Assembly: GCA_028867025.1 (NCBI GenBank)
Contig: JAGWHC010000002.1
Location: 2,561-66,560, forward strand
Reading direction: 5' to 3'
Length of the DNA: 64,000 bases
Source: Candidatus Micrarchaeota archaeon
GTDB taxonomy: Archaea > Micrarchaeota > Micrarchaeia > Micrarchaeales > CABMGC01
Shown: piece after piece, positions 25,095 through 64,000 of the stretch
Layout: each line of letters begins with the position of its first letter
Numbering within the stretch: position 1 is the stretch's first letter
The notes under the pieces: model-generated
Database searches by the model: none
What the model was told of the DNA's origin: nothing
What the model saw: the letters and a program-made list of their open reading frames with translations, nothing else
Translations under genes and position numbers: made by a program

Positions 25095-27917
25095 ATGAGG
25101 GATTCTATCAAGAAAATAAGAATTTTGCTTGTAGTTTTAGCCTATTCAATTATATTTATCACTCCGGCTTACTCGCAAACTCTTAATACTTCAGATTTGT
25201 TTAACTGCTTTAACATCCCAACAAGTCCCCCGCGTAATTTTATTCTGGCTCTATTAAATTATACTAGTATTGAAAACACAGTTGGGGCGTGTGCGATTTC
25301 TTCCTTATTTAATTACAATTCTAGCGAGATTCTTAAATCTTATAATATTAGTGTTAATCTGACAGAGTTAAACAAACAATTTTTCGCCAACAATCCCTCT
25401 TTGCCAACACAAACCTCCGAGAGCAACATGCTAAACAATTCTACAGTTCTAAACTTCACAACCGCTGAACAGTTATGCTTGCGATATACTCCTGATAATA
25501 CAAATCCAAACTCGAATGCGATACGCATTCATGCTCAGCAGTGTAATCTCGGGATTAGTAAAGAAGCAATTATTGTTAATGTCGTACCAAACAGTCTTGT
25601 TATTGCTTTGCCGTCCGTGCGGCTAAATGCAACCCAATCTCCCACATACAAGGAAACAAATGCAGATAACCTCACCGATCCTATTCAAGGTATAGGGATA
25701 AGTAGCGCCAGTTATTGGACAGGTTATCAAGTTCAAACAACACAACCAAAACCAATAACATATGTACAAGGTTCTTGGATTTTGCAACCGGCTCTCTCAA
25801 GTCCAACTCCAAGGGCTTCTAGTCAGTGGATCGGTATCGGTTCTAATCAAAGCGGAGGAGATTTAATTCAGATCGGAACTTATTCTTGTTATGACGAATT
25901 ACTTCCGCAGTGTTCTAATAGTCACGGTGCTAGTTATGGCGCATTTTTTGAAATAGTTAACCCAACGTATAGTCAATATGTTATAAAAATACCATTTGCT
26001 ATCCCAGGAATGAATGCAGAGGATATAATAACAGCCTATCTAAGCCTGACACCTAACCTGACTGCTCCTAATTTGCAAAACATCAATGCAGAGGTATGCG
26101 ATCTATCTCTTTTACTACAACCAGTGCACTGTTTGTATATAATAGATCAAGCTCCATCGTCCCGCTTAGCTGCAGATTGGATGGATGAAAGACCTAGATT
26201 TTGCCGTATTGGCCTTTTAAGTAGTTGCCTTCTTCCAGCATCAACTGGATTTGTAAATTTCATTAATGCTTCTTATGGTTTCAAATTTACTAATGCTGCT
26301 CAAAACATTGCAGAGATAAATGATACATTTAATACAATAAACAATCACCCAACCATTGTACTCTTTGATATGCAAAACGGAAACGATTTTGGTAATTCTA
26401 CAAATGTGACTCTATTAGCCAGTAATGATAGCTTTAGAATAATGAACTTTAGAGTTGGATTATTGAATGCATCTTCACAAAATGTAATACAGGGTGAAAA
26501 TTACACTATAAAAATAAGAACCGATTCGGCACCGAACACCGCACTGGGAGGTACAGGAAACTATTCCTATCAATGGTTAGAAAGTCGTCTTGACGGCAAT
26601 TATAGTGCATCAACTGACTGTACAAACCAGACAAGCGCCACGTGCGCAATACAAACGAATTCCTCAACACTGCTAGGTAATTATTCATTCAAATTACGGA
26701 TTCACGCTGTCGGTGGTCCTACAAACGAGAATTTAACAACAGGACCTATAAATGTCGCAGTCTCTCCACCAATGCTTCCATATGTTGCTATTAACCTAAC
26801 AAACACGCAGTCGAATCCGACACCGCAGCCGTTCCAACAGCTTTTGGGAATAAATAGTGCAAAATATCTTGGCATAAACTCCAACTGGACCAACGTGGAA
26901 TTTACAACCGGGCCTGGCGGCACAGGGCAACCCCTGCAGGCATGGGTCGAAAGCGGCCCGAGCAACACATCGGGCACACGAGTTTGGGTCAGGCTGAACC
27001 AAAGCATATCCGCATTTGGCAGCCGCACAATCTACATGGACATAATGCCGAACAACGTCATGTCAGCAAACGGCCCTACTGGTGAGGCGCCCACGCTCAG
27101 TTCCGTATATGGCAAGTACGACAACGGCAACCGCGTTTTCAACATATATGACAATTTCACTGGCAGGTATTCTGGCAACGGCACAGGTGCCATAGACTCA
27201 CAGGTCAGCAGCGGCAGCAACGGCACCGCCTGGAAAGTGGACAACGGGCTTACCTTCGGTCAGGGAGTACCTTACGAGTACTCGCCCGCATGCCTTGGCA
27301 ACTGCGAGGCCGTAGTGTACCTGTCGCACTTCCTCATAAACCGCTCAAGTTACTTCTCGCTGAACCAGACAGTGGATGTCAACTGGGGCCCGAGCAGCGA
27401 GCAGTTCTGCCTAGATATATACTGTTATGGGCATTATACCGTCCCCACAGGATATGGAGGGTTCGTCAGTTCTAACGATTATTCCTTTGATTCAGGAGTG
27501 CTTGAGACAAACCCAGCCAGGTACGGTACAAACCCTGATTTTACCTACTCGATGTACACATATAACGGCAATGCAGAGGTGAGCCAAACATTCAACTTTT
27601 CAGCCTTCAACTCGCTTTACAACGAATACTTCTACTTCACCGATGACTTCGCCAAACCAGGAATGCCCTTGAGCTTCTCGCTCTACAATAGCCGGTTCTA
27701 TCTGGAGAGCAGGTATGCAGGCTACGATTTCGGCCCACCGCTCAACTCCTCCACATCGCTTAATTCGCCTTCGGACGCCTTCGCCATGATAGCATATTCT
27801 TACACCGACAACTATGGGAGGTATGTGAACAACACCGCGACGATAAACTGGATAAGGGCAAGAAATACGCCACCAAACGGCATTATGCCTGCGGTATCCT
27901 TCGGTCCTCTGCAATAG
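25095..27917 (+). CDS. Secreted multi-domain protein: peptidase G1 (eqolisin)-like domain, Ig-like GGTxxYxY module, DUF2341-like and LamG/concanavalin-like C-terminal region
   Basis: It has a Sec signal peptide (LLVVLAYSIIFITPAYS/Q). SYWTGYQV...VQGSWILQP...SSQWIGIGS...DLIQIGT...YGAFFEIV...AADWMDER resembles glutamic peptidase G1. NWTNVEFTTGPGGTGQPLQAWVESG...TRVWVRLNQSISAFGSRTIYMDIMPN resembles DUF2341. Confidence 0.6.
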   Translation: MRDSIKKIRILLVVLAYSIIFITPAYSQTLNTSDLFNCFNIPTSPPRNFILALLNYTSIENTVGACAISSLFNYNSSEILKSYNISVNLTELNKQFFANNPSLPTQTSESNMLNNSTVLNFTTAEQLCLRYTPDNTNPNSNAIRIHAQQCNLGISKEAIIVNVVPNSLVIALPSVRLNATQSPTYKETNADNLTDPIQGIGISSASYWTGYQVQTTQPKPITYVQGSWILQPALSSPTPRASSQWIGIGSNQSGGDLIQIGTYSCYDELLPQCSNSHGASYGAFFEIVNPTYSQYVIKIPFAIPGMNAEDIITAYLSLTPNLTAPNLQNINAEVCDLSLLLQPVHCLYIIDQAPSSRLAADWMDERPRFCRIGLLSSCLLPASTGFVNFINASYGFKFTNAAQNIAEINDTFNTINNHPTIVLFDMQNGNDFGNSTNVTLLASNDSFRIMNFRVGLLNASSQNVIQGENYTIKIRTDSAPNTALGGTGNYSYQWLESRLDGNYSASTDCTNQTSATCAIQTNSSTLLGNYSFKLRIHAVGGPTNENLTTGPINVAVSPPMLPYVAINLTNTQSNPTPQPFQQLLGINSAKYLGINSNWTNVEFTTGPGGTGQPLQAWVESGPSNTSGTRVWVRLNQSISAFGSRTIYMDIMPNNVMSANGPTGEAPTLSSVYGKYDNGNRVFNIYDNFTGRYSGNGTGAIDSQVSSGSNGTAWKVDNGLTFGQGVPYEYSPACLGNCEAVVYLSHFLINRSSYFSLNQTVDVNWGPSSEQFCLDIYCYGHYTVPTGYGGFVSSNDYSFDSGVLETNPARYGTNPDFTYSMYTYNGNAEVSQTFNFSAFNSLYNEYFYFTDDFAKPGMPLSFSLYNSRFYLESRYAGYDFGPPLNSSTSLNSPSDAFAMIAYSYTDNYGRYVNNTATINWIRARNTPPNGIMPAVSFGPLQ

Positions 27918-38382: not shown

Positions 38383-38411
38383 TCGCGGAAATAAACACAC
38401 CAGCCATTGAC

Positions 38412-39895
38412 ACCAGTCGATGCTGCTGGAGGACACTGCTATCAGATTTCGACAGCCATGCAAGTTTGCTCACCGGCTTCGGTGGGCGGCGCACGGCTCA
38501 GTAACGCGTACTCAATCTAACCTAGAGAGGGGCATAACGTTGGGAAACTGACGCTAATATCACATGGGCCAGGGACTCTGGAATGGAATCTTGGCCGAAA
38601 TCGCTGTGAAAAATGCATCACAGCGGCTCTAGGATGGGAGTGCGTCGGATCAGGCAGATGGCGGGGTAACGGCCCACCATACCTTTGACCCGTAGGGGCT
38701 GTGGAAGCAGAAGCCCCGAGAAGGGCACTGAGACAAGGGCCCTAGCGCTACGGCGTGCAGCAGGCGCGAAACCTCCACAATGCGCGAAAGCGTGATGGGG
38801 GGAGTCTGAGTGGCGCACTTCGGTGTGCCTTTTGCCAAGTCTAGTTAGCTTGGCGAATAAGTGCTGGGTAAGACCGGTGGCAGCCGCCACGGTAATACCG
38901 GCGGCACAAGTGGTGTCCGCGATTATTGGGCTTAAAGGGCCAGTAGCCTGTTGGAACCGTCCCAAGTGAAATGTCAGCGCTCAACGTTGACTCGGGCTTG
39001 GGATACCTTCCGACTAGGGAGTGGGAGAGGTCAGGGGTACTTATGGGGTAGGGGTAAAATCCTGTAATCCTATAAGGACCACCGGTGGCGAAGGCGCCTG
39101 ACCAGAACACATCCGACGGTGAGTGGCTAAGGCTAGGAGAACGAATCGGATTAGATACCCGAGTAGCCCTAGCAGTAAATTATGCAGACTCAGGTGTTGC
39201 ACCACTTTTTAGTGGCGCAGTACCGTAGGGAAACTGATAAGTCTGCCGCCTGGGGAGTACGGCCGCAAGGTTGAAACTTAAAGCAATTGGCGGGGGAGCA
39301 CCACAAGGGGTGGATGCTGCGGTTTAATTGAATTCAACGTCCGAAATATCACCTGGAGCGACGGCAGGATGAAGGTCAGACTGAAGATCTTGCCTAACGA
39401 GCCGAGAGGTGGTGCATGGCGATCGTCAGCTCGTGGTGTGAACTGTCCGGTTAAGTCCGGTAACGAGCGAGACCCTCATGAACAGTTGCAACCGTCGAAG
39501 AGATTCGGCGGGCACTCTGTTCGGACCGCCTCCGTTTAAGGAGGAGGAAGGAGAGGGCGACGGTACGTCAGTATGCCCCGAATCTCCAGGGCTACACGCG
39601 GCATACAGAGGCTGCTACAATGGGTTGCGACCCCGAAAGGGGAGGCTAATCCCCCAAAAGCAGTCAAAGTCCGGATTGAGGGCTGAAACTCGCCCTCATG
39701 AAGCTGGAATCCCTAGTAATCGCGTATCACTATTGCGCGGTGAATGTGTCCCCGCTCCTTGCACACACCGCCTGTCAAGTCACCCAAGCGAGGTTTTAGT
39801 GAGGCAGCGCCTACGGCGTTTTCGAACTAATGCTTTGTGAGGGGGGCTAAGTCATAACAAGGTATCCGTAGGGGAACCTGCGGATAGATCACCTC
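38412..39895 (+). rRNA. rrs: 16S ribosomal RNA (not linked to 23S)
   Basis: Conserved blocks run throughout: ...GGCAGCCGCCACGGTAATACC..., GGATTAGATACCC, GCACACACCGCCTGTCA, GTCATAACAAGGTATCCGTAGGGGAACCTGCGGATAGATCACCTC. The ends were estimated by comparison with canonical archaeal termini and are good to a few nt. Confidence 0.95.
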
Positions 39896-39921
39896 GAAAC
39901 TTTTTTGTTTCGTTTAGCAGG

Positions 39922-50747: not shown

Positions 50748-51002
50748 ATGAACACAAGAATAACTGCAATAGCAGGCGTGAGCATCTTGTTCGCGACCTT
50801 GCTGATAGGAACAGTAGGGGCGATGAGTACTTCCGGCGCTTGCCACGGAGCCTTCGCCAACGTAAACGGCAACTTCGGCTTCCTTGGCGGAGTAGGCGGA
50901 ACGCCGGGCTACCATAATGGCGCAGTTGGACAGCAGATAGGCGCAACCGGATACAACAACGGTGCGCTCTCTGGGGACTGCACGTTGCCAAGCGGACAGT
51001 AA
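50748..51002 (+). CDS. Small secreted Gly-rich peptide precursor (84 aa)
   Basis: A strong SD-like GAGGTGA lies 4 nt upstream of the ATG. It has a signal or TM segment (ITAIAGVSILFATLLIGTVGA), then a ~55-aa Gly/Asn-rich region with two Cys. A hairpin lies just downstream. Confidence 0.55.
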   Translation: MNTRITAIAGVSILFATLLIGTVGAMSTSGACHGAFANVNGNFGFLGGVGGTPGYHNGAVGQQIGATGYNNGALSGDCTLPSGQ

Positions 51003-53309: not shown

Positions 53310-54044
53310 CTACCTTCTCCTGCGCCTTGCGCTCTTTCTTGTAGTGCGCTTGCGTGCTCTCGCAGTGGGTCTCCTGCCTCCCGCGCGGCGCCTTGACTCC
53401 ATAGCCTTGAACTCCGCATAGGTCATCTTCTTCTCCTTCTTGGGCAGCGGCCTGAACGCCTTCGCCTTCTTAGCCGCCTTCTTGCCGGCAGCCCTCTTCG
53501 GAGCCCTCCTTACCCTGATGAAGTAGTATGAGCCCGCAGCGCCCAGGCCCGCGGCGACGGCCACACCTGCTATTATGTAGTCGATGAGCGGAAGCGGCTT
53601 TGCCGGAAGCGCGGTTATAGTGAACAGCTTCACCACCCCTACAGAGAGAGTGGCTCCTCCGTTGAGCGCAGTTGTGTTGCTCGCCTCCTCTACCGCCACC
53701 CCGGCGCGCCACGCTGTCCCAACTGTTGCATTGTAAGGTACTTTCACTGTTATGTTGATGAAGATGTTCTCCCTCGGAAGCATCACGCCTTTTGTAGGGC
53801 TGATTATGATCGTGGGCGACATCACGTTCGCCACTGCGTTGACCTGAGATCTGGTGGCGTAGTATATGGACTGGTTCGCGCAGCTGTTGAACACCTGCAT
53901 CTGCAGCGTCTCGTTGCTTCCGGCGCTTACATTGAAGCTGATCTTGCCAGCCACTTCGCCTATGCACGCTGAGGAAAGTCCTGAGAACAAGAAAAGGGCT
54001 AGCAGGAATACAGACGCTAGATACGAGCCTGCCCTCCTAACCAT
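53310..54044 (-). CDS. Bitopic membrane protein: signal peptide, one Ig-like beta domain, TM helix, ~68-aa poly-basic cytoplasmic tail
   Basis: The signal peptide is YLASVFLLALFLFSGLSSA. The beta-rich ectodomain includes ISFNVSAGSNETLQMQVFN...IIISPTKGVMLPRENIFINITVKV, followed by the TM helix IDYIIAGVAVAAGLGAAGSYYFI. The tail is RVRRAPKRAAGKKAAKKAK...RKRTTRKSARRRRR. Confidence 0.6.
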   Translation of the reverse strand: MVRRAGSYLASVFLLALFLFSGLSSACIGEVAGKISFNVSAGSNETLQMQVFNSCANQSIYYATRSQVNAVANVMSPTIIISPTKGVMLPRENIFINITVKVPYNATVGTAWRAGVAVEEASNTTALNGGATLSVGVVKLFTITALPAKPLPLIDYIIAGVAVAAGLGAAGSYYFIRVRRAPKRAAGKKAAKKAKAFRPLPKKEKKMTYAEFKAMESRRRAGGRRPTARARKRTTRKSARRRRR

Positions 54045-54075
54045 TGAAACCAGCTAAATAGCAATCCAAGGGCAC

Positions 54076-54618
54076 CTAGCAACTGAATGTTACTGTTATG
54101 CCCTGCGTGTACGTGCCCGGGACCTGGCCGGTTGGTACGTTGAGTCCGAAGAAGAGGTTAGCGGAAGTGCCCACCGGGACGAAAATCTGCGTGTCCGCTG
54201 TTATGGAGTTGGTGAGCTGGTTGCCGTTGTTGGCCGCATGCGTCTGCCCGTCCCAAAGCGTGTTGCCTACCAGGAAGTTTCCTACTCCTCCATCCTGCCA
54301 GTTGCCGCTAAGTGCCACACCCGAGTCTGAGTAGAGAAGTATGTTCGTGCTTACCGATCCCGAGTCGGTGACCTTCTCGGCGTTGGACGTGGATGCTGAG
54401 AATCCAGGCTGCACAGAGCCGAAGTTGATCACTGTGTTGGTTATTAATGGGACGCACACTCCTGACACCTGCACCTTCGTGGTTATGCCGTTGAAGGTGT
54501 TCGTTGTCGAGGCGAAGACCAGCGCCGCCGGGCTGAATATAGCGATAAGAGTAACAGCTATCATCGCAGATACTGTCAAGAACGCGAATGCTGATTGTAT
54601 GGTTTTTTTGGCTAGCAT
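54076..54618 (-). CDS. Small secreted protein, Cys-bounded beta module paralogous to the adhesin C-terminus (candidate fibre subunit)
   Basis: It has a Sec-type signal peptide ending VFA/S. The mature part is CVPLITNTVINFGSV...GNTLWDG...NNGNQLTNSITADT...LFFGLNVPTGQVPGTYTQGITVTFSC. It shares 20-nt and 37-nt identical tracts with 55226..55600. Confidence 0.65.
   Translation of the reverse strand: MLAKKTIQSAFAFLTVSAMIAVTLIAIFSPAALVFASTTNTFNGITTKVQVSGVCVPLITNTVINFGSVQPGFSASTSNAEKVTDSGSVSTNILLYSDSGVALSGNWQDGGVGNFLVGNTLWDGQTHAANNGNQLTNSITADTQIFVPVGTSANLFFGLNVPTGQVPGTYTQGITVTFSC
54092..54280. repeat. Dispersed repeat copy A (3' end of small-subunit gene)
   Basis: It is collinear with 55245..55433 at a constant offset of 1153 nt. 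Identical tracts are ACTGTTATGCCCTGCGTGTA (54092-54111 = 55245-55264) and GTTATGGAGTTGGTGAGCTGGTTGCCGTTGTTGGCCG (54200-54236 = 55353-55389). A 23-nt core also occurs at 54748-54770. Confidence 0.8.
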
Positions 54619-55136
54619 GATAGCATCACATTCACTGTGGTCTGGTAGGTCCCTGGCAGTGCGGGCGGAGGAACGTTTGTCCCGAAGTATACCGTGCCTG
54701 TGCCGCCGTTCGCGCTTGCCTGAAGCTGAGTGTCAGCGCCAAGTATTGAGTTGGTGAGCTGGTTGCCGTTTGCCGTGGATCCGTGCGACACGTCGTCCCA
54801 CAGTATGTTGCCTACGAGGAAGGCGTTCGAGAGGTATATGAAGTTGCCTCCGTCGACGAATATGTTGCTCTGGAAGTTGCCGTAGTTGGTTACTGTCTCA
54901 ATGTTTGAGGTGGCCGCGTAGCTGCCTGCAGGCACAGAGCCGAAGTTTATTACAGTGTTGCTTGCCAGCGGTATGCAGGTGTTTGGTATGGCGACGTTGC
55001 CTCCAATTGTGTTGGAGTACGATGCCGCTTGAACGGTAAATGCAGGTCCGAGCAACGAGTAAAGCACCAGTGCGGTGAGCGATGAGACGATAGCAAAGGC
55101 TAGCGCAGACACGACTAGCTCGTTATTTCTCTTCAT
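54612..55136 (-). CDS. Small secreted protein, second paralogue of the Cys-bounded module (candidate fibre subunit)
   Basis: Its signal peptide ends VQA/A. The mature part is CIPLASNTVINFGSV...GNILWDD...NGNQLTNSILGADT...VYFGTNVPPPALPGTYQTTVNVMLSC. It overlaps the next gene by 7 nt. Confidence 0.65.
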   Translation of the reverse strand: MKRNNELVVSALAFAIVSSLTALVLYSLLGPAFTVQAASYSNTIGGNVAIPNTCIPLASNTVINFGSVPAGSYAATSNIETVTNYGNFQSNIFVDGGNFIYLSNAFLVGNILWDDVSHGSTANGNQLTNSILGADTQLQASANGGTGTVYFGTNVPPPALPGTYQTTVNVMLSC

Positions 55137-55176
55137 TTCAGTCGCCGTCTCGGTGTGCTACTATGTGTGTAGTAAG

Positions 55177-55188
55177 ATATTTAAATAT
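55177..55188 (-). promoter_or_regulatory. TATA box candidate for the small-subunit gene pair
   Basis: ATATTTAAATAT lies in the 89-nt gap, about 45 nt upstream of the ATG at 55136. Confidence 0.4.
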
Positions 55189-55225
55189 ACTTCTTTTGTG
55201 GAATGCGCAAACTCCAATCATTCTA

Positions 55226-58200
55226 TCACCCGCACGAGAGCGCGACTGTTATGCCCTGCGTGTATGTTCCCGTAGCCTGCCCGGCAGGAACGTTGAGCCC
55301 GAAGAAGAGATCCGCGGTGTCGCTGGATGCGAGCGAGTTGAACGTGTCTGTGGTTATGGAGTTGGTGAGCTGGTTGCCGTTGTTGGCCGTGCGCTTGCTC
55401 AGGTCCCAGAGCGTGTTTCCAGTGAGGAAGCTGTTGCCGAAGTAGATCCAGTTGCCTGTCGTCGTGCTCGTGGAGTAGATTATTATGTTGCCCGTGGCTG
55501 TGCCCGCGTTCGTGATCGGCATCGCGTTCTGCGTCGCCGTTGAGAAGCCCGCCTGCAGGCTGCCGAAGTTTATGAGCGTGTTCGTTATGGTGGGTATGCA
55601 TGTGGCCGCGCTCGGCTTGTTGCTCATGTTGAATATCGTGGGCGCGCCGCTCTGCCAGCCAATGTCCCACGCATAATCCGTGTATGCGCCCCCGCCGCTC
55701 AGGTCGACCATGCCGTTGAGCGTGTACGTCTGCGTGTTCGGCACGGCGTTGTTGAACTTCTGGTACATTGCGTTGGCGTTGTCGTATGTGGGTATGTTAG
55801 CGTTGGCATACGCGACAGCGGCCCCGTCTGTTGTCCAGCTCTCCCCTGCTGACAGCGAGCCGCTGGAGAAGTTCCTCATGAAGCCGAGCACGTACTGGTT
55901 GGTGGTCTGAAACTCGGCGATCACGTTGCTCGTGGCCACCGAAGTTGCGCCCTTCCAGTACCTGCCCAGGGTGAAGTAGCTGTCGGTGCTTACAGGCCCT
56001 ATGTTGTATCCGGCATTTCCGACAGGATAGAAGTAGCCGCCGCTGGGGCTCGACTTCACGGTCCAGCCTATCGGATTGATTATGTTCTCCGCAAGGTACT
56101 CCTGCGGAGTGCCTGATCCGAGGTTTGAGAGCCAGTGCCTGTAGCCCATGTCGACGCTGTTCCCACCTTCTCCAGTAAGCGTTATACCTACGTTTGCTAT
56201 CCAATTACCGGTCTCGATCCACGTATGGTTCGAGTCCTGGAACGCCCAGGTGACAACTGTGTTGACCACGTTAGCTAGGCTTGCGCTGTTCTGGGCATCA
56301 TCCGATGCCTGGGGGAAGTAGTAGAGCAGCGTGCCTGACGAGGGGTAGTAGGATATAGTGTACGGCTGCACTATCCTGCCGACATCCCATTTTGTTTCCG
56401 TGCCTTCGGCGAAACTGCCATAGATGTTGAACGTCGACGTTGTGAACCTGGCGTCTGCGAAGTTTGGATACAGGTGCCTGTAAGTCCCCGCTCCGGTCCC
56501 TCTGTTGGCTGACTCAACCTGCGTGGTCACGTCCCACTTCTTATCGGTTGACTGCGCGGTGGCGTTGATCACGTAAAGCCCCGGATAGAAATACTGTCCA
56601 GCATTGTTCACGAGCACGCCGTTGTCAAGCAGGTAGAGGCCGTTCCCTGCCGTATCCGTGCCCGGGTTTACCGCTATGTAGTCGCTAGTCACAGCGAAAT
56701 TTGTCAGTGTCACTTCCATGCTCTTCTCCTTTGTGAAGCGGTTGTTTTCGACTACGACATCAGGTATCGTGTTTGCGGCTGGGGTCACGCTGTTCACAGC
56801 GCCGAGGAGGTCTAGGGAGTTGGTGTCGAAGAGGGTGTCGTTGTAGACAACGAACTGTATAGTGCCGGAGGTTGGGCTTACAGATGTCGTAGTGCTAAGT
56901 GCCCCAACGCTGCCCGTGATGACCTTTATTCTTATTCCGCCCAGAGTGTAGATGCCTGAACCTATGCTTGTAGGCGCGTTGGCGTTGCCGCTCTTCCACT
57001 GAATCACGTATCCTGTAGGCACATTGGCGTAGTAGACATTGAGCAGGCCGCCCTGCAGCATATCCATGAGCGTGTTTCCGGTGTCGACTACGTTTCCAGC
57101 CCAAAGCACCGGACCCCACCTGAAGTCGCCCAACGGGGTTAGCAGCCATGGCAGTCGTGTTGCCTCACCGCTGTGCTGTGTGCTTGTCGATACTGTGCTC
57201 GCCTGTCCAATAAGCCCGTTTGTCGGAAAGCCGCCCAGCGCGTTCACTGGTACTATCTGTATGCTGTTTATCCCGTTCACTACGTCGGAGGTGAGGTTCC
57301 AGCCGTGCAGCTGGAACGTGAGCCCGTTGTACGCGTATGTGTCGTAAAAGACGGGATCCTGCATCATGCCGGTTGGCGAGGAAAAGCTCCAGCCAACTAT
57401 CTCGTTAACAGCGTTGGCTCCGCTGACAGTTATCGTGCTGGATATGCTGTTGAACACTGTGCTCGTTCCCTGGTCTGTGCCTATGGCATTGTACGTGTAC
57501 GAAATACCGTTGTTCGGTCCTGCCTGGAAGTAGAGCGTGTTGGAGCCACCTGGCGAGGCAATGACCACGTTGCCCCCGAGGTTCTTGCTGCCGGTCACGT
57601 TGTAGAACTCGATCGTGAACGGGCCCGTGCCGCCGCTGGCCGTTGCTGTGAATGTCTCTGTCTGGCCGGCAAGCACGGTTGAGGGCGTGGCCGTAAACGT
57701 GAGAGAGGGCGGGGGCGGAGCCACAACTGTCATGGTGTTTGTTATAAGCACGTTGTTGACTGTGCTCGCGCTGTCGAGCACGTTGCCGGTGAGCGTGAGC
57801 GTGCCTATGGAGTTGACGTTCTGCGATGAGGTCGGAATCGTGAATGTGCTTATCTCGTTGGTCGCTGCTATCCCGGAGACTATGCTGTTGTATACTATGT
57901 TGACCGGGGTGACGAAGGTATTTGTCACAAGGAAGTTATAGGTGTACGAGCTCTTTCCTCCGGTGACTATCATGTTCAGGGTAACAGGGCTGCCCTGCGC
58001 TGGATTCGGAGAGGAGGTTATCGCAACCGGGAAGAAGCCGTTGTATGCGGTGAATGTGGTAGTAGCAAGGGCATTGTAAGGAGTGGCAGAAGAGTCGACA
58101 ACGTTGGCAGTGAACGTGAGCGTGCCGATCGCGTTCTGCTCATAGGGCAGCGTGAAGCTTACGGAGTTGCTCGTGCTCGAGCTGCTCTGCTGCGAGGCGT

Positions 58201-60736
58201 ATATTACGTTGCTGGTCTGCGTGTTCGTGACGAGGTAGTTGTACGTGTACGGCGTAGTTGTGGCCAAGGCCGATATTGAGACCGAAAGCGCCTCCACCTG
58301 TCCCTGGTCCGCGATCGCGTTGGACACAGTCTGGGAGGTTATGGTTATGCCGTTCTTGATGTAGTTGGCGGATATTATGGCGTCTCCGAGTACTGTTATC
58401 GTATTTGTGGTGCCGGACGTGGGGCTGAGTATGACGTTGGCGGTGTTGGGCGCGTAGACCGTGAAACCGCTGAATGAGTAGCCTGTAGGGGCGACGGGCA
58501 CAAGGGTGTTGGTGCCCAGCACAGTTATGACATTGCCGTTGGCCTGCTGCGTTCCGTTCGTTATTATGTTGCCCGTCGCCGGGTAGTCAAGTAGCAGTAT
58601 GTTGGTCGGGGAATAGACGTACGAGGAGATGGAATACACAGCAGCAGCATCTCCTGAAGTTGAGGTTATCTGGGCCGTATAAGGGCCCGGAGCCAGCGCG
58701 TTGCACGTCTGGATGACCACCTTCGTGCCCGTCTTTGTGCTTCCCTCCGTGGCCGTCTGGAGCGTTGCGCAGCCTGTCTGCGGAGTGCTTATCGTGGCGC
58801 CCGCGTCTCCAGCCACTCCGAAAATCAACAAAACAAGGCTATTCGACAGCTTTTCGGTGTAAGTCAAGCTGGCTGTCGAGCCCAAGGTGTTCACGGTTAT
58901 TATGTTGACATCAGCGACCGCCGTATTAGCAACGTTCGCGCCGTAGCTGACCAGCGACTGCGAGTACGTGGTAGCCGACAAGGTTACGGAGCCAAAGTTG
59001 CCAAGTGTGTTGCGCCCTATGGCTGTGAGGTTGGTGTACCTTTTGGCGCCTTGGCCGGTCGACACCCCGTTTGTTTCGTTGGAGTTGTTGGTCCAGCTGA
59101 TGCTTTTGCTCGCCGTGTTTGGCTGGGTGTGCGACGCGACGCCGAAGAAGTAGCTCATGTAGTTCGTGCCAAGCGTGTTGCTCACCGTGGCCGTCGTGCT
59201 CGTCACGCCGTTGTACGTGAAGCCCACAACGTAGCCGGAGAGCGAGTTTGAATCCGCTGTATAGAAGTAGGAGGTTGCGTTGGAACCCGCGAGGCTTGTC
59301 GGCAGCGCATTCCAGCTGCCCGAGCCGGGGTAGTACTTGAAGAGCCTTATGCTAGAGACGCTTGTATTTTCCTGAGCAATCCACGAGCTTGGCACCGAGA
59401 AGTTGTAGGTGGCGTTATTGACATACAGGTCAATGTTGTTCTTGCCCGTGCCTATGCTGCCGTTTATCTGCATGAACTGGTACACTCCGAAGCGTGGTTG
59501 CGTGAGACTGCTCGGGACGGCAGAGCTGTTGCTTATTGTGATGTTGGCCTGGAGGTTCTGCGCCGTGAAGTTGATCTCTATGTTCCTGAGTACTGATTTG
59601 CTCAGCGTTATTCTGGATCTGGAACCTACCGTTCCCTGGAAACTGTATCTGCCGTTAGTGCCGTTGAACGTTGAGACGTAGTTCTGAATAGCAGGTATGG
59701 TGGTGGTAGAGCTCGTGCTTACAGACGTGGTTGTCGAAGACGTAGAGCTGCTGCCCACAGTCGTGGTGGACGTTGAGGTGATTGTCGAAGTTGTCGAAGT
59801 TGTTGTGGTCTTTGGAGCCGACGCAACACTTATCGTGTTGCTTCCGAACGCGCCGCTGCCTGAGGAGTCGAGCACATTAGCGGTGATTATTAGTGTGCCT
59901 ATATCATTTGACTCCACTGGAAGGGTGAAACTGACCGAATTGCTCGTGAGCGAGTTGCTTACCTGTGCAGCAAAGACCGAGTTGCCTGTGTTGGTATTGC
60001 TCACGGCAAAGCTGTACGTGTATGGCGGCTCCCCACCGGTCACTCTTGCGGTTAGCAGCTCGTACTGGCCCTGTGCCGCTGACTTGTTGGACGCGTAGAT
60101 GCCGATGAAGGCAAACCGCTGTATCGAGTTTGCTGCGGATACTGTCATGGAATTGCTCGCTGAAATGCCTGCCCCCCTCGAATCCGTTATGTTGACCCTG
60201 ACCGTCAGCGTTCCAACGTCGTTCGCCTCTGCAGGCAGCGAAAACCCTGTGCTGCCTTGAGTTTGCGAGCTCGAAACCAGCTTCTGGAAGATTATGTTGC
60301 CCGTGTTTGTGTTGCTCACTATGAAATTGTACGCGTACGGCGCAGTGCCGCCGGTGATCGCCGCAGTAAGCGTTTCGCTCTGCCCCTGCGTTGCTGTCGA
60401 ATTCGAAACAGTCAGATAGTCGAAACCTAGTAGCGCTATGGTGGTCGTGACGCTTGTCGTGCTTGCCGAAGTTGTGGAGGAGGTGGTTGTGCTTGTACTC
60501 AGCGTTGTTGTGGATGATGAGGTGCTGGTTGAACTCAGCGTGTTCGTCTGGTTTCCGGTAGATGCGAAGAGCAGGTGGGAATTTCCGTGGTGCGCCGCGT
60601 ACTGCTGCTGGGCTTGTGACGCTGACGGAGCGCTGCTCGGCACCTGCGGCAGCTGCGGAAGTTGGATCTTGCTTGCGACGAACAGGATCATGAGCAGTAT
60701 TATCAGTGTTAGAAGATTTCCGGTCAGGTTGCCCAT
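55226..60736 (-). CDS. Giant (1836 aa) N-terminally anchored or secreted multi-domain surface protein (adhesin-like)
   Basis: It has an N-terminal hydrophobic helix, two Ser/Thr-only linkers and five Ig-like modules with the GG(T/E/K)xxY(T/A)Y motif. A PGF-pre-PGF-like segment (IRLFKYYPGSGSWNALPTS...YFYTADSNSLSGYVVG) and a ~550-aa unassigned domain follow. The C-terminal 124-aa Cys-bounded module ends GTYTQGITVALSCG. Confidence 0.8.
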   Translation of the reverse strand: MGNLTGNLLTLIILLMILFVASKIQLPQLPQVPSSAPSASQAQQQYAAHHGNSHLLFASTGNQTNTLSSTSTSSSTTTLSTSTTTSSTTSASTTSVTTTIALLGFDYLTVSNSTATQGQSETLTAAITGGTAPYAYNFIVSNTNTGNIIFQKLVSSSQTQGSTGFSLPAEANDVGTLTVRVNITDSRGAGISASNSMTVSAANSIQRFAFIGIYASNKSAAQGQYELLTARVTGGEPPYTYSFAVSNTNTGNSVFAAQVSNSLTSNSVSFTLPVESNDIGTLIITANVLDSSGSGAFGSNTISVASAPKTTTTSTTSTITSTSTTTVGSSSTSSTTTSVSTSSTTTIPAIQNYVSTFNGTNGRYSFQGTVGSRSRITLSKSVLRNIEINFTAQNLQANITISNSSAVPSSLTQPRFGVYQFMQINGSIGTGKNNIDLYVNNATYNFSVPSSWIAQENTSVSSIRLFKYYPGSGSWNALPTSLAGSNATSYFYTADSNSLSGYVVGFTYNGVTSTTATVSNTLGTNYMSYFFGVASHTQPNTASKSISWTNNSNETNGVSTGQGAKRYTNLTAIGRNTLGNFGSVTLSATTYSQSLVSYGANVANTAVADVNIITVNTLGSTASLTYTEKLSNSLVLLIFGVAGDAGATISTPQTGCATLQTATEGSTKTGTKVVIQTCNALAPGPYTAQITSTSGDAAAVYSISSYVYSPTNILLLDYPATGNIITNGTQQANGNVITVLGTNTLVPVAPTGYSFSGFTVYAPNTANVILSPTSGTTNTITVLGDAIISANYIKNGITITSQTVSNAIADQGQVEALSVSISALATTTPYTYNYLVTNTQTSNVIYASQQSSSSTSNSVSFTLPYEQNAIGTLTFTANVVDSSATPYNALATTTFTAYNGFFPVAITSSPNPAQGSPVTLNMIVTGGKSSYTYNFLVTNTFVTPVNIVYNSIVSGIAATNEISTFTIPTSSQNVNSIGTLTLTGNVLDSASTVNNVLITNTMTVVAPPPPSLTFTATPSTVLAGQTETFTATASGGTGPFTIEFYNVTGSKNLGGNVVIASPGGSNTLYFQAGPNNGISYTYNAIGTDQGTSTVFNSISSTITVSGANAVNEIVGWSFSSPTGMMQDPVFYDTYAYNGLTFQLHGWNLTSDVVNGINSIQIVPVNALGGFPTNGLIGQASTVSTSTQHSGEATRLPWLLTPLGDFRWGPVLWAGNVVDTGNTLMDMLQGGLLNVYYANVPTGYVIQWKSGNANAPTSIGSGIYTLGGIRIKVITGSVGALSTTTSVSPTSGTIQFVVYNDTLFDTNSLDLLGAVNSVTPAANTIPDVVVENNRFTKEKSMEVTLTNFAVTSDYIAVNPGTDTAGNGLYLLDNGVLVNNAGQYFYPGLYVINATAQSTDKKWDVTTQVESANRGTGAGTYRHLYPNFADARFTTSTFNIYGSFAEGTETKWDVGRIVQPYTISYYPSSGTLLYYFPQASDDAQNSASLANVVNTVVTWAFQDSNHTWIETGNWIANVGITLTGEGGNSVDMGYRHWLSNLGSGTPQEYLAENIINPIGWTVKSSPSGGYFYPVGNAGYNIGPVSTDSYFTLGRYWKGATSVATSNVIAEFQTTNQYVLGFMRNFSSGSLSAGESWTTDGAAVAYANANIPTYDNANAMYQKFNNAVPNTQTYTLNGMVDLSGGGAYTDYAWDIGWQSGAPTIFNMSNKPSAATCIPTITNTLINFGSLQAGFSTATQNAMPITNAGTATGNIIIYSTSTTTGNWIYFGNSFLTGNTLWDLSKRTANNGNQLTNSITTDTFNSLASSDTADLFFGLNVPAGQATGTYTQGITVALSCG
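55245..55433. repeat. Dispersed repeat copy B (3' end of giant adhesin gene)
   Basis: See copy A. Confidence 0.8.
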
Positions 60737-60827
60737 ATATTAGTTGTTATATACAAAAGTTAAAAATAGCTAGCAACACCGCTTCGCGGTGTGCACAGGC
60801 CAGCCGGTTTCCTGCGGTTCAAGCGTC

Positions 60828-61553
60828 CTAGAAATTGTCCCCGATTATGCGTTCGTAGTGCGACGCCAATTGCGTTATCCCCTGGGAGAAAGGCGCGTCG
60901 TCGTTTTCAAGAAAGAGGGGTATCTGCTTGGCTATGCTCACCGGCACCTCTTGATCCTCTGGAAGCACTGCCAGGGCTTTCTTGTCCAGGCCCTCCTCGA
61001 TCTCCTCGATCGTGATCTCATGCTTCTCCTTCGTCACCCTGTTTACCACAAGGCTGGTTTTGAGGTTGTGCTTGGCGTAAATGTTGGAAAGCCTTATCAC
61101 CGACGTTAGCGATGGCAGGTCCGGGGTTGCGACAAGCAGCGCCTCGTCATGATAGACGAGCACCCTTTCATTGACTATCCCCGGAGACGTGTCGAAAATC
61201 GCGAAATCGTAATCCGTTTCCTTGAGCGGTCCGCCGACCCTGTCGATCTCATCAGGGGTCAGGGTTACTTCGCCTTCGAAGATCGAGCCTGGCAGGACGT
61301 CAAGTCCTGCGGGGAAGTACTTGACCAACGCACCCTCTACGGTCACATGGCCTGCAAAAACGTCCTTTATACCTGTGGTTATCGCTTCTAGCCTGAGATG
61401 CATGCCTACAGAGGGGTTCGACAGGTCAGCGTCTGCAAGAAGCACCTTGTGGCCCCTTGTGCTGAGCGCGGCAGCGAGATTCACCGCTATGACAGTCTTG
61501 CCTACCCCGCCCTTCTGCGAAGACACTCTTATGAAATAGGGCTTCTTTGCCAT
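60828..61553 (-). CDS. ParA/MinD-family ATPase (short form)
   Basis: It has the deviant Walker A SSQKGGVGKT, Switch-like LLADADLSNP, Walker B DFAIFDTSPG and ATPDLPSLTS. Confidence 0.8.
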   Translation of the reverse strand: MAKKPYFIRVSSQKGGVGKTVIAVNLAAALSTRGHKVLLADADLSNPSVGMHLRLEAITTGIKDVFAGHVTVEGALVKYFPAGLDVLPGSIFEGEVTLTPDEIDRVGGPLKETDYDFAIFDTSPGIVNERVLVYHDEALLVATPDLPSLTSVIRLSNIYAKHNLKTSLVVNRVTKEKHEITIEEIEEGLDKKALAVLPEDQEVPVSIAKQIPLFLENDDAPFSQGITQLASHYERIIGDNF

Positions 61554-61560
61554 GCGAACA

Positions 61561-62955
61561 TCAGGTTTCTACTTCTGAGCTTCCCCCAGGCTCTTCGCCA
61601 CCTTCTTCTGGCGAAGGCGACGCCTCGTTTGTGTCTTGTGAAGCTCCCCCGGCTTCCGCATCATCCTCGTCTTCGTCCTTTTCTTTTTCCTCTGCAGGCT
61701 CAGAGATCGGGGACAGGCCCCAGGCTAACGAGTCCGCTCTCGCTTTTGCGATCTTATTCAAGCTCTTATTTCCGTCGTCTGCCGCTTCGTTTTTAGGCCT
61801 TTTTACAGCGGCACCCTTGCTGCGGTTATTCTTCTGACTCTTCCTCGCCGCTGCTTTCTTCAGCTTCGATCTCTTCTTTGCCTTGTTCTTGCCTTTCGTC
61901 TTCAGTTCCTTAGCGCTCTTCCTCAGTTCCTTGGCCTGCTCCTTCCTCAATTCCACCTGCTTCCTGGCCTCGATCTTCCTCTTCATCTCTGCCTTGCGCG
62001 CCAGCTCCTCGGCCTTCGCCTTGGCCTCCATCTTCTTCCTCATGGACTCTATCTCGCGCTTCGCCTTCGACTCCGCCTCTGCGCGCTCCTTCTCAATCTT
62101 CTCGGCAAGCAGCGCGCGCTGCCTCTTCTCCTCCTTCTTCAACGCCTCCGCCGCGATCTTGCTTATCTTCTCGCTCTCCTTCCTCTCACGCTCGCCCGAG
62201 AGTCTCTTCCAGTTTGCGAATTGTGGCCCGTGCTGCGACGCTCCGCCTGCTTTCCCCGCGCATGCGTTCGCGAGTTTCTTCATCGCCACTGTGAATGGCG
62301 AGGATTCGCCGCTCAAGTATGCTGGGGTGTGCGCGGCAAGGCTTTCGCTGACAGTTGTGTCCTCAGGAAACGCCACCGTCACCTTTCCTCCCCACGCGTC
62401 CTCTATCTCGCTTATTCTCAGTTCATAGCTCCTGCCCGTAACCCTGTTGAGCGTCAATGTATACCTCTCCTTTATCCCCTTGAGTTCCTCTCCCAGCCTG
62501 AGCGCGCTCGTGAGCGCAGGCAGGTCCGGCGTGGCCACTATCACCGCCTCGTCGAACGGCATCATGTCCTCCTCCTGCTGCAGTCCAGGCGCTGTGTCGA
62601 CTACAACGAAATCGTAGCTGCACCTCTCAAGCTCCTCAACCAGCCTCTTGACGTGCGTGTTTGTCAGCTGGAACGGCTTCGTGCTGAGCATGCCAAGCAC
62701 GCAGTGCATCCCCGTTGGGGCGTGCACAGTCACCACGTTTGCCAGGCTGGCGCCGTCCACCACGAGATTCTCAAAACCCACCTTCGCGTCCTCCATGCCA
62801 AGGTGCAACCCAACCGCGGGATTGTCGGTGTCAGCGTCGACCATCAGCACGCGCTTGTTCGTCAGCTTCAGCGCGACGGCGAGGTTCACAGCTACTGTTG
62901 TCTTGCCTACCCCGCCCTTCTGGCTCAGAACGCCTATTATATACGGCCTCAGCAA
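61561..62955 (-). CDS. ParA/MinD-family ATPase with ~140-aa Lys/Glu-rich coiled-coil and acidic C-terminal tail
   Basis: The N-terminal ~235 aa carry LSQKGGVGKT, MVDADTDNP, DFVVVDTAPG and ATPDLPALTS. A KE/KR-rich segment (KKEEKRQRALLAEKIEKERAEAESKAKREIESMRKKMEAKAKAEE...) follows, then EPAEEKEKDEDEDDAEAGG...EEGGEEPGGSSEVET. Confidence 0.8.
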   Translation of the reverse strand: MLRPYIIGVLSQKGGVGKTTVAVNLAVALKLTNKRVLMVDADTDNPAVGLHLGMEDAKVGFENLVVDGASLANVVTVHAPTGMHCVLGMLSTKPFQLTNTHVKRLVEELERCSYDFVVVDTAPGLQQEEDMMPFDEAVIVATPDLPALTSALRLGEELKGIKERYTLTLNRVTGRSYELRISEIEDAWGGKVTVAFPEDTTVSESLAAHTPAYLSGESSPFTVAMKKLANACAGKAGGASQHGPQFANWKRLSGERERKESEKISKIAAEALKKEEKRQRALLAEKIEKERAEAESKAKREIESMRKKMEAKAKAEELARKAEMKRKIEARKQVELRKEQAKELRKSAKELKTKGKNKAKKRSKLKKAAARKSQKNNRSKGAAVKRPKNEAADDGNKSLNKIAKARADSLAWGLSPISEPAEEKEKDEDEDDAEAGGASQDTNEASPSPEEGGEEPGGSSEVET

Positions 62956-64000
62956 TCACTCACCCTTGTCCCCTTTCAGCTTCTCTCTTATGTCCCTAAG
63001 TTCCTTAACCCTTTCATCGCTGACCCTTTCGCTGCCCCTCTCGCTGCCCTCGGGCTCCTTGTTCGCCGGCTTTGAGATGAGCTGCTTCACCCTGCTTATG
63101 CTGTCTGCCATGCCTGGCCTGCTCTCCCTATTTTCAGGCTGCGCGCCTCCAGGCGGAGGCGGTCCGCGCTCCGATTCGCCATGTCCGAGGCGAGCGCCTC
63201 TGGCCTGCGGCAGGAATCGCACGATGAGGAAAACCACAATCACTACAAATGCGAGCGCAATCAGCGCATTATAGACCTGCATCGAAGCCTGCTGCGCCGC
63301 GGGAAGTATCACGACAGGCACTCTCTGGGTTATGTTGTACTGCCCTGCAATGACGCTCAGCGTGAAGAGGTCAGTGCCCGGAGCCGAATCCTCTATTGTG
63401 AAGTTGGTCGTGACCAATTGGTTGGGAGTGACGTTGAACTTCTGCACGGGGTTGAGCACCTTGCCGCTCGACTCGCTTGTGAACGAGATTGTCATCTGCT
63501 GCGGCACCGAGTCTGTGTAGAATATGGACACCGTGGCGTTTGACAGCGTGTTTGCATACGGAGTGGGAAGGTCGATGCTCACCACCCTCAGCACCTGCGC
63601 CGTGGTTATTGCCGATGGCTGCACGAGAACAGTCTGTATGTACTTCAGCGGGAACTGGTGCACCGGATGGTTTATCGTGTAGTAGCCATAGACGAACTGA
63701 TCAGCTGGCAGGGAGGTTATGTGCCAATCTATGATTATCGTCCCGTTGACGCTGCTCACGTTGTTCGCTATCCCGAATGTGGTTATCTGCGATGTGCTGT
63801 TCACCAGGCCGGGAGGAAATATCGTCTTGACCTCAGTGTTCGTGAGGTTCTCGTTTACAGGGCTGCCTATCTGGATCACTCCGCTGACCTGCTGCGTGTT
63901 GTTGACTATGCTTATCTGGTCGATCACGCTGGGCTGAGCGGTGTTCCTTGCGCTTATCGTGACGGAGATGTACTCCACCTGGGTCGTCGTACCTGTGCTG
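62956..64000 (-). CDS. Bitopic surface protein (beta-rich ectodomain, TM helix, ~85-aa charged cytoplasmic tail); N-terminus outside window
   Basis: The frame stays open beyond the GTG at 63978 to the window edge. The sequon-rich beta ectodomain is followed by the TM helix VYNALIALAFVVIVVFLIV and a charged tail (GESERGPPPPGG...ERVKELRDIREKLKGDKGE). Its stop abuts the start of the long MinD gene. Confidence 0.6.
   Translation of the reverse strand, partial: STGTTTQVEYISVTISARNTAQPSVIDQISIVNNTQQVSGVIQIGSPVNENLTNTEVKTIFPPGLVNSTSQITTFGIANNVSSVNGTIIIDWHITSLPADQFVYGYYTINHPVHQFPLKYIQTVLVQPSAITTAQVLRVVSIDLPTPYANTLSNATVSIFYTDSVPQQMTISFTSESSGKVLNPVQKFNVTPNQLVTTNFTIEDSAPGTDLFTLSVIAGQYNITQRVPVVILPAAQQASMQVYNALIALAFVVIVVFLIVRFLPQARGARLGHGESERGPPPPGGAQPENRESRPGMADSISRVKQLISKPANKEPEGSERGSERVSDERVKELRDIREKLKGDKGE

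Follow-up and report, generated by a model that had tools for sequence, protein, structure and literature searches.

A conserved gene cassette of Micrarchaeota as a candidate locus for an usher-less donor-strand surface fibre

Micrarchaeota carry a conserved gene cassette that we consider rather likely to encode a surface fibre exported through Sec and held together by strand donation, without an usher. The cassette was studied in a window of 64,000 nt (the whole stretch of DNA that was analysed) from a metagenome-assembled genome (MAG) of Candidatus Micrarchaeota archaeon (GCA_028867025.1, JAGWHC010000002.1, positions 2,561-66,560, forward). An earlier note on this DNA had described seven consecutive minus-strand open reading frames (ORFs) with gaps of 0, 7, 91 and 89 nt, an overlap of 7 nt and a gap of 31 nt, and all of these ORFs and spacings were confirmed (Table 1). 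In order, they encode a large bitopic protein, hereafter the anchor, two ParA/MinD-type ATPases, a giant surface protein, the small subunits B and A, and a small bitopic Ig-like protein. The anchor gene is present as described, but it is truncated in the window, since its frame is open to base 64000. The G+C content of the seven-gene block (0.55-0.58) lies at the upper end of the range in the window (0.42-0.59). In Pfam and NCBIfam searches with the seven proteins only the two ATPases and a PGF-pre-PGF domain of the giant were recognised, and neither the two small proteins nor the two bitopic proteins had a match.

Subunit A, subunit B and the C-terminal 125 residues of the giant have in common a module that constitutes a new protein family without a Pfam or NCBIfam model. 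The three align pairwise at 42-58% identity, the module of the giant being 58% identical to subunit A, so that the note's observation of one module on both kinds of protein holds by alignment as well as by family profile. The motifs C...INFGS and PGTY(T/Q)xxxxVxxSC that it had pointed out are present in the small proteins of the window. Two Cys residues are invariant in subunit A, subunit B and the C-terminus of the giant, one at the start of the module and one at the last or second-last residue. There was no Pfam match at E<=0.1 for subunit A, subunit B or the giant, no NCBIfam match for the subunits, and no sequence match in the PDB for subunit A alone or for a profile of 63 subunit sequences; a hypothetical protein from a Candidatus Micrarchaeota MAG has the same sequence as subunit A. 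When 1.84 billion cluster representatives were searched exhaustively with a profile (threshold E<=1e-3), 332 representatives of the module family were obtained. Word-indexed homologue searches were low in recall (9, 27 and 2 matches), and the family size is taken from the exhaustive search. All family members with a named source belong to Micrarchaeota.

The module occurs in three architectures, counted in 158 of the 332 representatives. Single subunits of ~170-190 aa account for 77 of these, natural tandems of two modules (~320-340 aa) for 26, and large module-bearing proteins of ~280-3421 aa for about 53. In all but two of the 158 the module stands at the extreme C-terminus, where it nearly always ends in ...SC. 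Four tandems lack both Cys residues of module 1 and keep both of module 2. This joint loss assigns the Cys pair to one and the same module and argues for a predicted disulfide within the module, which would tie its start to the end of the last strand, beside the presumed site of the donor strand. The same four tandems argue against a head-to-tail disulfide between molecules, from the C-terminal Cys of one to the first Cys of the next. In one lineage a VKOR homologue and a DUF929 protein are encoded 4 kb upstream of the cassette (locus L017, 5004-6291); an extracytoplasmic disulfide-forming system of this kind would fit the invariant Cys pair.

The segment ahead of the first Cys carries a motif that resembles a donor strand. 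In the window, the segments of 18 and 16 residues that the earlier note had reported before the Cys of subunits A and B are present, as are the cleavage sites VFA/S and VQA/A. Across the family, 13-17 residues follow the register [ST]-N-x-[VI]-x-[AG]-x-V-x-[VI]-x-x-x-C, and the hydrophobic residues alternate, at positions -10, -8, -6 and -4 relative to the first Cys. We scored this motif with a position-weight matrix trained on 63 single subunits, for which the background had a mean of -21.5 and a standard deviation of 8.8. The median score was 21.2 in single subunits (the 63 training sequences included), 16.4 before the first module of tandems and 15.0 before the second. Before the module of large proteins the median was -8.6, meaning that the motif is absent there; the only exceptions are the second modules of two proteins that bear two modules.

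The same motif was found on the anchors, which bear no module. In six of six lineages, the best 10-residue window of the whole 660-960-aa anchor lies at residue 24-27, just past the signal peptide (SNTIGANVVV, SNTISASVTI, SNTVQANVTV, TANIVASITV, TSNLTGSVSV and GATITASVQV). Only a fraction of 1e-5 to 5e-5 of 177,146 background windows scored as high as the anchors, and the anchors themselves are probably among the background windows. The anchor N-termini were not reported by HMMER with a 16-column model of the motif, whereas the position-weight scan did detect them. No degenerate module was found inside the anchor when it was searched with a profile, so that the anchor shares with the subunits the strand motif only. 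The proteins would accordingly fall into three classes: the giant as an acceptor only, the subunits as donor and acceptor, and the anchor as a donor only, with a membrane helix. In chaperone-usher pili the adhesin, the rod subunit and the terminator follow just this sequence of acceptor only, donor and acceptor, and donor only. The distribution of the motif over giants, subunits and anchors therefore points to the tip-rod-terminator logic of donor-strand pili.

Predicted structures are in line with this view. An AlphaFold2 model of subunit A, built from 11 sequences, reached a predicted local distance difference test score (pLDDT) of 62; residues 29-52 were below pLDDT 50 and residues 29-59 were modelled as coil. 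A natural tandem from locus L014 (P0163, 28 sequences) was modelled with pLDDT 79.4 and a predicted template modelling score (pTM) of 0.66. In this model the copy of the motif between the two modules (190-198) forms a confident strand. A turn of 7 residues separates it from the last strand of module 1 (172-182), giving a beta-hairpin-like arrangement. The free N-terminal copy (38-51) is coil, and residues 31-42 are below pLDDT 50. Donation to the preceding module fits these two states, because both copies would be expected to be ordered if the segment were the first strand of its own module. On these models the natural tandems look like engineered donor-strand-fused pilins, and the N-terminal segment, which had been called strand-like, would by motif distribution and modelling behave as a donor strand.

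In a Foldseek search of the PDB, the top match of the tandem model was CsuE, the tip adhesin of the archaic Csu pilus (E 2e-6). Other top matches were LpfD, a CfaE-CfaB fusion (template modelling (TM) score 0.45) and a CfaB-CfaB donor-strand fusion (TM 0.46/0.49), with CfaE and CupB6 lower in the list. The likeness to SCPU/Csu-type pilins that the earlier note had proposed therefore stands for the fold, which resembles that of chaperone-usher pilins, but fails for sequence membership in SCPU, in both Pfam and the PDB. The resemblance of the opening and closing motifs to SCPU-type pilins comes from the earlier note, and no hidden Markov model (HMM) confirmed it.

The module might instead serve as a surface-anchoring or lattice domain, in an S-layer-like or WxL-like complex in which the proteins dock side by side, are held by the bitopic proteins and form no polymer. 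Its place as a C-terminal tag on about 53 different large proteins is reminiscent of sorting and anchoring domains. The Foldseek matches of the tandem model include a WxL-interacting protein complex (9i25_C), and one homologue of the 244-aa protein has a faint match to WxLIP_PGBD. There are also few subunit genes per cassette. We nevertheless think a lattice unlikely. It leaves unexplained why the strand motif is on the subunits and on the module-less anchor and not on the large proteins, why natural tandems join their modules through exactly this motif, and why the best fold matches are donor-strand pilus proteins.

The arrangement of the genes is conserved far beyond the window. We compared the DNA around homologues in ten further lineages (loci L001 to L017), with protein homology to the window's proteins determined by BLASTP; a related-locus search with an 11-sequence alignment gave five loci. 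The common order is a bitopic protein of 660-960 aa, one or two ParA/MinD ATPases, the giant, the subunits, and a bitopic Ig protein of 200-256 aa, where the subunit slot holds one to three single subunits or one tandem. It is complete in four further lineages (L001-4/L008, L007/L009, L014 and L015) and truncated by the contig in six more (L005/6/10, L011, L012, L013, L016 and L017). Wherever the contig is long enough the order holds, including loci whose subunits are only ~30% identical to those of the window (L013, L014 and L015). Since the same order recurs in ten further lineages, the seven-gene arrangement is not due to chance. The earlier note's treatment of the genes as one unit is thereby borne out, and the synteny across relatives on which it had staked its reading is that of a conserved neighbourhood.

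Details of the spacing recur as well. In seven lineages without further synteny, the ATPase gene comes directly after the anchor gene and either abuts or overlaps it (0 nt in the window, 14 nt in L014, 8 nt in L015). The 7-nt overlap of the two subunit genes is identical in L001-L004 and in L007, which makes three lineages with the window. The gene of the small bitopic protein is immediately downstream of the subunit gene or genes in every locus that reaches that far. A second ATPase copy is also found in L015. In L005 (2414-5475; equal to L006 and L010), three single subunits, two of type B and one of type A, stand in a row after a module-bearing ORF; an ATPase was not seen on the available contig, which starts inside the cassette.

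Both ATPases of the window have the deviant Walker A motif KGGVGKT, which is invariant in all seven cassette ATPases. The 464-aa protein is 65% identical to its orthologue in L002 and 38% identical to its 241-aa paralogue. Archaeal MinD (minD_arch, TIGR01969) is their best NCBIfam model, with 135.9 bits for the 241-aa and 115.4 bits for the 464-aa protein, and weak matches to CpaE-like Ssd and BcsQ were also obtained. Both proteins are below the TIGR01969 cut-off of 201.75, which places them in the ParA/MinD superfamily and not in the curated subfamily. Six of the seven cassette ATPases have a MinD-like amphipathic motif C-terminal to the core (for example GPQFANWKRL in the window, GGFFAWLRRLFRLGR in L014 and GGIIGWLRRVIGF in L015), the 241-aa copy being the one without it. 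The Lys-Glu (KE) coil and acidic tail noticed earlier on the 464-aa protein are present, but the long form is found only here; it is shorter in L002 and not conserved in orthologues. The earlier note's idea that the MinD-like proteins work through charged tails thus lacks conservation on the ATPase side. From these sequences we infer that the conserved ATPase may be a membrane-bound ATP switch in contact with the cytoplasmic tails of the two bitopic proteins. A precedent exists in archaeal MinD proteins, which position chemosensory arrays and archaella (PMC11588486; 10.1101/2020.04.03.021790).

A more prosaic explanation is that the surface genes and the MinD genes are mere neighbours, the ATPases working in cell division or in the partition of chromosomes or plasmids, with the small Ig protein as an unrelated membrane protein. 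It would agree with archaeal MinD as the best model of both ATPases, with the annotation of minD for division in Micrarchaeota genomes (PMC8784108), and with the 91-nt gap, whose hairpin and T-run suggest separate transcripts for the ATPases and the giant. This explanation seems to us quite improbable. The scores of 136 and 115 bits fall short of the minD_arch cut-off, no ParB, MinE or FtsZ gene lies beside the ATPase, and the cassette MinD genes are unlikely to be stray cell-division genes because they overlap or abut the anchor gene in seven lineages. An ATPase dedicated to some unrelated function such as division, by which the earlier note's reading could have fallen, is thus not what was found; the ATPase genes are tied to the cassette.

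The two longer gaps hint at the transcription of the cassette. The TATA-like boxes and the hairpin that had been reported in the 91- and 89-nt gaps are there in the sequence. In the 91-nt gap the hairpin cacaccgc-gaa-gcggtgt (60776-60793) is followed by a T-run and an A/T-rich box, which may represent a terminator and then the promoter of the giant gene. In the 89-nt gap, the strong BRE/TATA-like element AAAAGAAGTATATTTAAATA (Table 1) is likely to give the subunit genes a promoter of their own. Independent promoters for giant and subunits would fit a fibre, since a fibre needs its parts in different copy numbers.

The subunits appear to be secreted as Sec substrates. A site of the signal peptidase I type follows the hydrophobic run in 60 of the 63 single subunits, with Ala at -1 in 52 of the 63 and mostly V, A or L at -3, and the predicted cleavage leaves a median of 16 residues ahead of the first Cys. 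These sites bear out the earlier statement that the small proteins are Sec-type secreted proteins and not type IV pilins. The uncharged N-terminal run has a median of 23 residues, which is long for a Sec signal. Because of this length we considered whether the small proteins could be type IV pilin-like and retain the hydrophobic N-terminus as a membrane anchor, any fibre then being a type IV filament with its machinery elsewhere, and a charged residue followed by G, A or S does precede the run in 17 of the 63 members; we rejected this reading as hardly credible, given the cleavage sites just described, the tandem and giant-borne modules that have no such helix in front of them, the predicted beta-sandwich matching chaperone-usher pilins, and the lack of a class III signal peptide, PilB/FlaI ATPase, PilC/FlaJ and prepilin peptidase in the window and related loci, with the flanks of 17 loci searched for the three machinery genes.

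The giant has a signal peptide, Ser/Thr-rich stretches, repeated Ig-like units and an insert of ~700 aa without annotation, and it ends in the module (...VALSCG). The earlier note had found no PGF-CTERM feature in the locus; a PGF-CTERM tail is indeed lacking, but a PGF-pre-PGF domain (TIGR04213, aa 387-504, E 1e-13, above the cut-off) is present. Searching the giant against Pfam in pieces gave no further domains. The body of the protein varies between lineages, with Kelch or NHL matches in L014 and L015. Since the module is present and the donor segment absent, the sequence of the giant fits a tip position. Relative to the giants of L001 and L007, residues 1000-1710 (window 55607-57739, minus strand) are ~700 extra residues with no Pfam match. 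This insert seems to have split a motif-like segment, FNSISSTITVSG (aa 1095), from the module, because that segment aligns with the one directly before the module in L007. In L001 (5189-9187) and L002 (4844-9187) the module of the giant is internal (aa 839-993 and 954-1108) and is followed by ~340 residues that are DUF2341/lectin-like and end in ...REYPPNGIMPSVTFGSVA. In many other large members of the family, sequence of the REYPPNGIMPSVTFGSVA type stands immediately before the module, and the front part of a second adhesin appears to have been fused to the giant in L001 and L002.

The visible part of the anchor comprises a beta-rich ectodomain, a transmembrane segment at residues 245-263 and a charged cytoplasmic tail, and is 59% identical to a 772-aa homologue in L007. 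Full-length homologues range from 661 to 957 aa. They carry a signal peptide, a single C-terminal helix and a charged tail of 60-100 residues, and they give weak CARDB/NEW3/HYDIN-Ig matches. With the strand motif at the mature N-terminus of its homologues, the protein is likely to be both terminator and membrane anchor, a role that was absent from the earlier note. The 244-aa protein has a signal peptide, one Ig-like ectodomain of ~120 residues, a transmembrane segment and a very basic tail. The mature N-terminus of its family is conserved as A-[CQ]-[ILM]-G-[EQL]-x-[AG]-G. In three of eight homologues there were sub-threshold matches of the PapD-like/ASH clan (HYDIN_VesB_CFA65 Ig, OCRL ASH and Cep192 D6, E 8e-5 to 0.04), and a profile of the family gave no meaningful match in the PDB, so that the Ig fold class is assigned only tentatively. 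The chaperone-like role that had been proposed for this protein fared less well, with the matches confined to those three homologues. Such a role is suggested mainly because the gene directly follows the subunit genes and by analogy with the Pam pili discussed below.

We propose the following model. The extracellular parts would be exported via Sec and cut by signal peptidase I. The giant would start the fibre, its C-terminal module offering an acceptor groove and having no donor strand of its own. The strand of a subunit A or B would then insert beside the last strand of the preceding module, so that the chain would grow at its membrane-proximal end. The N-terminal strand of the large bitopic protein would cap the last groove, and its C-terminal helix would fix the fibre in the membrane. 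Before their incorporation, subunits would be held at the membrane by the small bitopic Ig protein. The MinD-type ATPase would bind the membrane through its amphipathic C-terminal motif and act on the tails of the two bitopic proteins, thus deciding where or when fibres are made. The conserved cassette, the three module architectures, the distribution of the motif, the Cys pairs and the likeness of the fold are observations; polymerisation, the order of the subunits, the chaperone role and the MinD role are what we infer, and the specific roles of the 244-aa protein and of the ATPases are held with less confidence than the fibre itself.

Several points weigh against such a fibre. The case for it is built on genes and predicted structures. 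The N-terminus of the anchor of this genome lies beyond the window, and the motif was read in homologues. The position-weight matrix was trained on single subunits, whose own scores are therefore circular; tandems, large proteins and anchors were outside the training. With the monomer model of subunit A, no PDB entry was matched by Foldseek below E 0.06. The matches of the tandem have modest TM-scores (0.27-0.46) and include many generic Ig-like proteins. That the linker strand pairs with module 1 is deduced from secondary structure and confidence in the model, and the alignment behind that model is deeper over module 2 than over module 1, which may add to the asymmetry in confidence. The internal module of the L001 and L002 giants departs from a simple C-terminus rule, and the 244-aa protein of the window has no Pfam match at all.

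Table 1. Coordinates of the cassette features and of a recurrent neighbouring gene. Positions are those of the window unless a locus is given.
Feature	Position	Strand	Remarks
Large bitopic protein (anchor), C-terminal 347 residues	62956..64000 (ORF 62956-63978)	-	Proposed fibre terminator and membrane anchor
MinD-type P-loop ATPase, 464 aa, TTG start	61561-62955	-	Pfam AAA_31/CbiA/ParA; cassette-conserved orthologue
Second ParA/MinD-type ATPase, 241 aa	60828-61553	-	Pfam CbiA/ParA/AAA_31; paralogue of the 464-aa ATPase
Intergenic region with hairpin, T-run and A/T-rich TATA-like box	60737..60827	-	Direct sequence reading
Giant surface protein, 1836 aa, proposed tip adhesin	55226-60736	-	Signal peptide, PGF-pre-PGF domain, Ig-like repeats
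C-terminal pilin-like module of the giant (aa 1711-1835, then Gly1836)	55229..55606	-	Family profile E 1e-36
Intergenic region with B recognition element (BRE)/TATA-like AAAAGAAGTATATTTAAATA	55137..55225	-	Direct sequence reading
Subunit B, 174 aa	54612-55136	-	Sec signal VQA/A; strand segment 54978-55025; Cys54...Cys174
Subunit A, 180 aa	54076-54618	-	Sec signal VFA/S; strand segment 54457-54510; Cys55...Cys180
Small bitopic Ig protein, 244 aa	53310-54044	-	Proposed membrane-tethered chaperone/assembly factor
Gly-rich secreted protein, GAFAN(I/V)NGNF	50748-51002	+	
Gly-rich secreted protein, GAFAN(I/V)NGNF	L001 13695-14003	-	
Gly-rich secreted protein, GAFAN(I/V)NGNF	L007 13440-13700	+	
Gly-rich secreted protein, GAFAN(I/V)NGNF	L012 12597-12851	-	

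Among known systems, chaperone-usher pili, especially the archaic Csu and class 5 CFA/I types, share with the cassette Sec-exported Ig-like subunits with an N-terminal donor strand, which is predicted here. A tip adhesin lacking a donor strand in its C-terminal pilin domain, and a terminator that donates and cannot accept, would be further points in common. In contrast to these pili, the cassette has no usher and no two-domain periplasmic chaperone, and there is no detectable sequence similarity. No match to Pfam Usher was found among the seven proteins or in the gene tables of the related loci, and the only candidate for a PapD-like chaperone, the 244-aa protein, has a single ectodomain and not two. 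The module of the cassette is predicted to be closed by a disulfide to the terminal Cys, its terminator would be a large bitopic membrane protein, and MinD-type ATPases are included. Archaea of the Micrarchaeota kind have no outer membrane.

By analogy, the closest system is the Pam pilus of bacteria of the candidate phyla radiation (CPR), which is built from Sec pilins by donor-strand exchange, with a tip pilin and PapD-like chaperones tethered by C-terminal helices (bioRxiv 10.64898/2026.03.03.709456). Its terminator PamR combines an N-terminal strand with a C-terminal helix that anchors the fibre (same preprint). Both systems belong to ultrasmall, host-dependent lineages and have Sec-dependent Ig-like pilins and no trans-envelope machine. 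The anchor, with its motif at residue 24-27 and its C-terminal transmembrane segment, would by analogy correspond to PamR, and the 244-aa protein, with an Ig domain and a transmembrane segment, to the chaperones. The differences are considerable. Pam pilins have two domains with a linker strand (a nine-strand sandwich and a truncated Ig), whereas the subunits here have one module and ~140 mature residues; Pam chaperones have the two-domain PapD fold, whereas the candidate here has one small Ig domain. At the tip, Pam pili carry a small single domain and the proposed fibre a giant, variable adhesin, and ParA/MinD is absent from the Pam operon. Pam pili are reported to be exclusive to CPR bacteria and the module family was seen only in Micrarchaeota; the two were compared by description only.

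Several archaeal filaments that are not of type IV also rely on strand donation with no known dedicated machine, namely threads (Saci_0406), bundling pili (AbpA, TasA-like), cannulae (CanA) and Tat-dependent haloarchaeal pili. Thread subunits are exported by Sec and cleaved by signal peptidase I. Unlike the cassette, none of these filaments has been reported with a module-bearing giant tip, a motif-sharing bitopic terminator or MinD ATPases in the operon, and the word 'ATPase' is absent from the threads preprint. Threads, AbpA, TasA and CanA gave no sequence match in the PDB search and were not in the Foldseek top 50 of the tandem model; AbpA (7ueg_A) appeared only at E 0.36 with the low-confidence monomer model. 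As for the ATPases, TadZ, FlhG and BcsQ place their envelope machines. The cassette ATPases resemble TadZ/CpaE of Tad pili, FlhG, BcsQ and haloarchaeal MinD4/MinD2 in the deviant Walker A motif and, for the conserved orthologue, the C-terminal amphipathic motif. They differ from TadZ in having no receiver domain, and from all of these proteins in that their cargo would be a Sec-assembled extracellular fibre, reached only via single-pass proteins. The invariant link to MinD-type ATPases would be new for any fibre built by strand donation; strand-donation filaments of archaea and CPR bacteria were already known.

Some other features of the window and of the related loci may be mentioned. A small Gly-rich secreted protein with the motif GAFAN(I/V)NGNF is encoded within a few kb of the cassette in four lineages (Table 1). 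It has no Pfam match, and it may be an accessory of the system or a mere conserved neighbour. A complete archaeal 16S rRNA gene lies at 38410-39897 on the plus strand (1375 bits), and the ORFs that overlap it are spurious. No 23S rRNA gene was detected anywhere in the window, which suggests that the rRNA genes are unlinked. Between 24000 and 32000 the G+C content is 0.42-0.47, compared with about 0.53-0.55 elsewhere, and a 940-aa secreted protein encoded there (25095-27917) matches Peptidase_A4 and, weakly, DUF2341. This region may be an acquired island or another surface-protein locus. A 525-aa ORF at 13-1590 on the plus strand has right-handed beta-helix/NosD repeats and probably encodes a further surface protein, whose N-terminal part is probably missing.

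Like other DPANN archaea, Micrarchaeota live attached to archaeal hosts, and few of the molecules that mediate the contact are known. In the Micrarchaeota papers examined we found no mention of pili, adhesins or such a cassette, which is now a strong candidate for this attachment. One may go further and see in it the first archaeal pilus with a tip adhesin, a rod and a membrane terminator, a convergent usher-less counterpart of chaperone-usher pili with its number or position under the control of a membrane-binding MinD-type ATPase via bitopic tails, and a host-attachment organelle of Micrarchaeota in which the hypervariable giant recognises the host; this wider picture is possible but speculative. 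The cassette, conserved and phylum-wide, provides targets for cryo-electron tomography, proteomics and co-culture in the giant tip, the polymerising subunits and the membrane anchor. If the fibre is real, the tip-rod-terminator logic of chaperone-usher pili could be rebuilt on a single membrane and without an usher, as has been proposed for CPR, the bacterial counterpart of DPANN. The MinD link, in turn, offers a testable case of cytoplasmic control over an assembly process that is extracellular and energy-independent.

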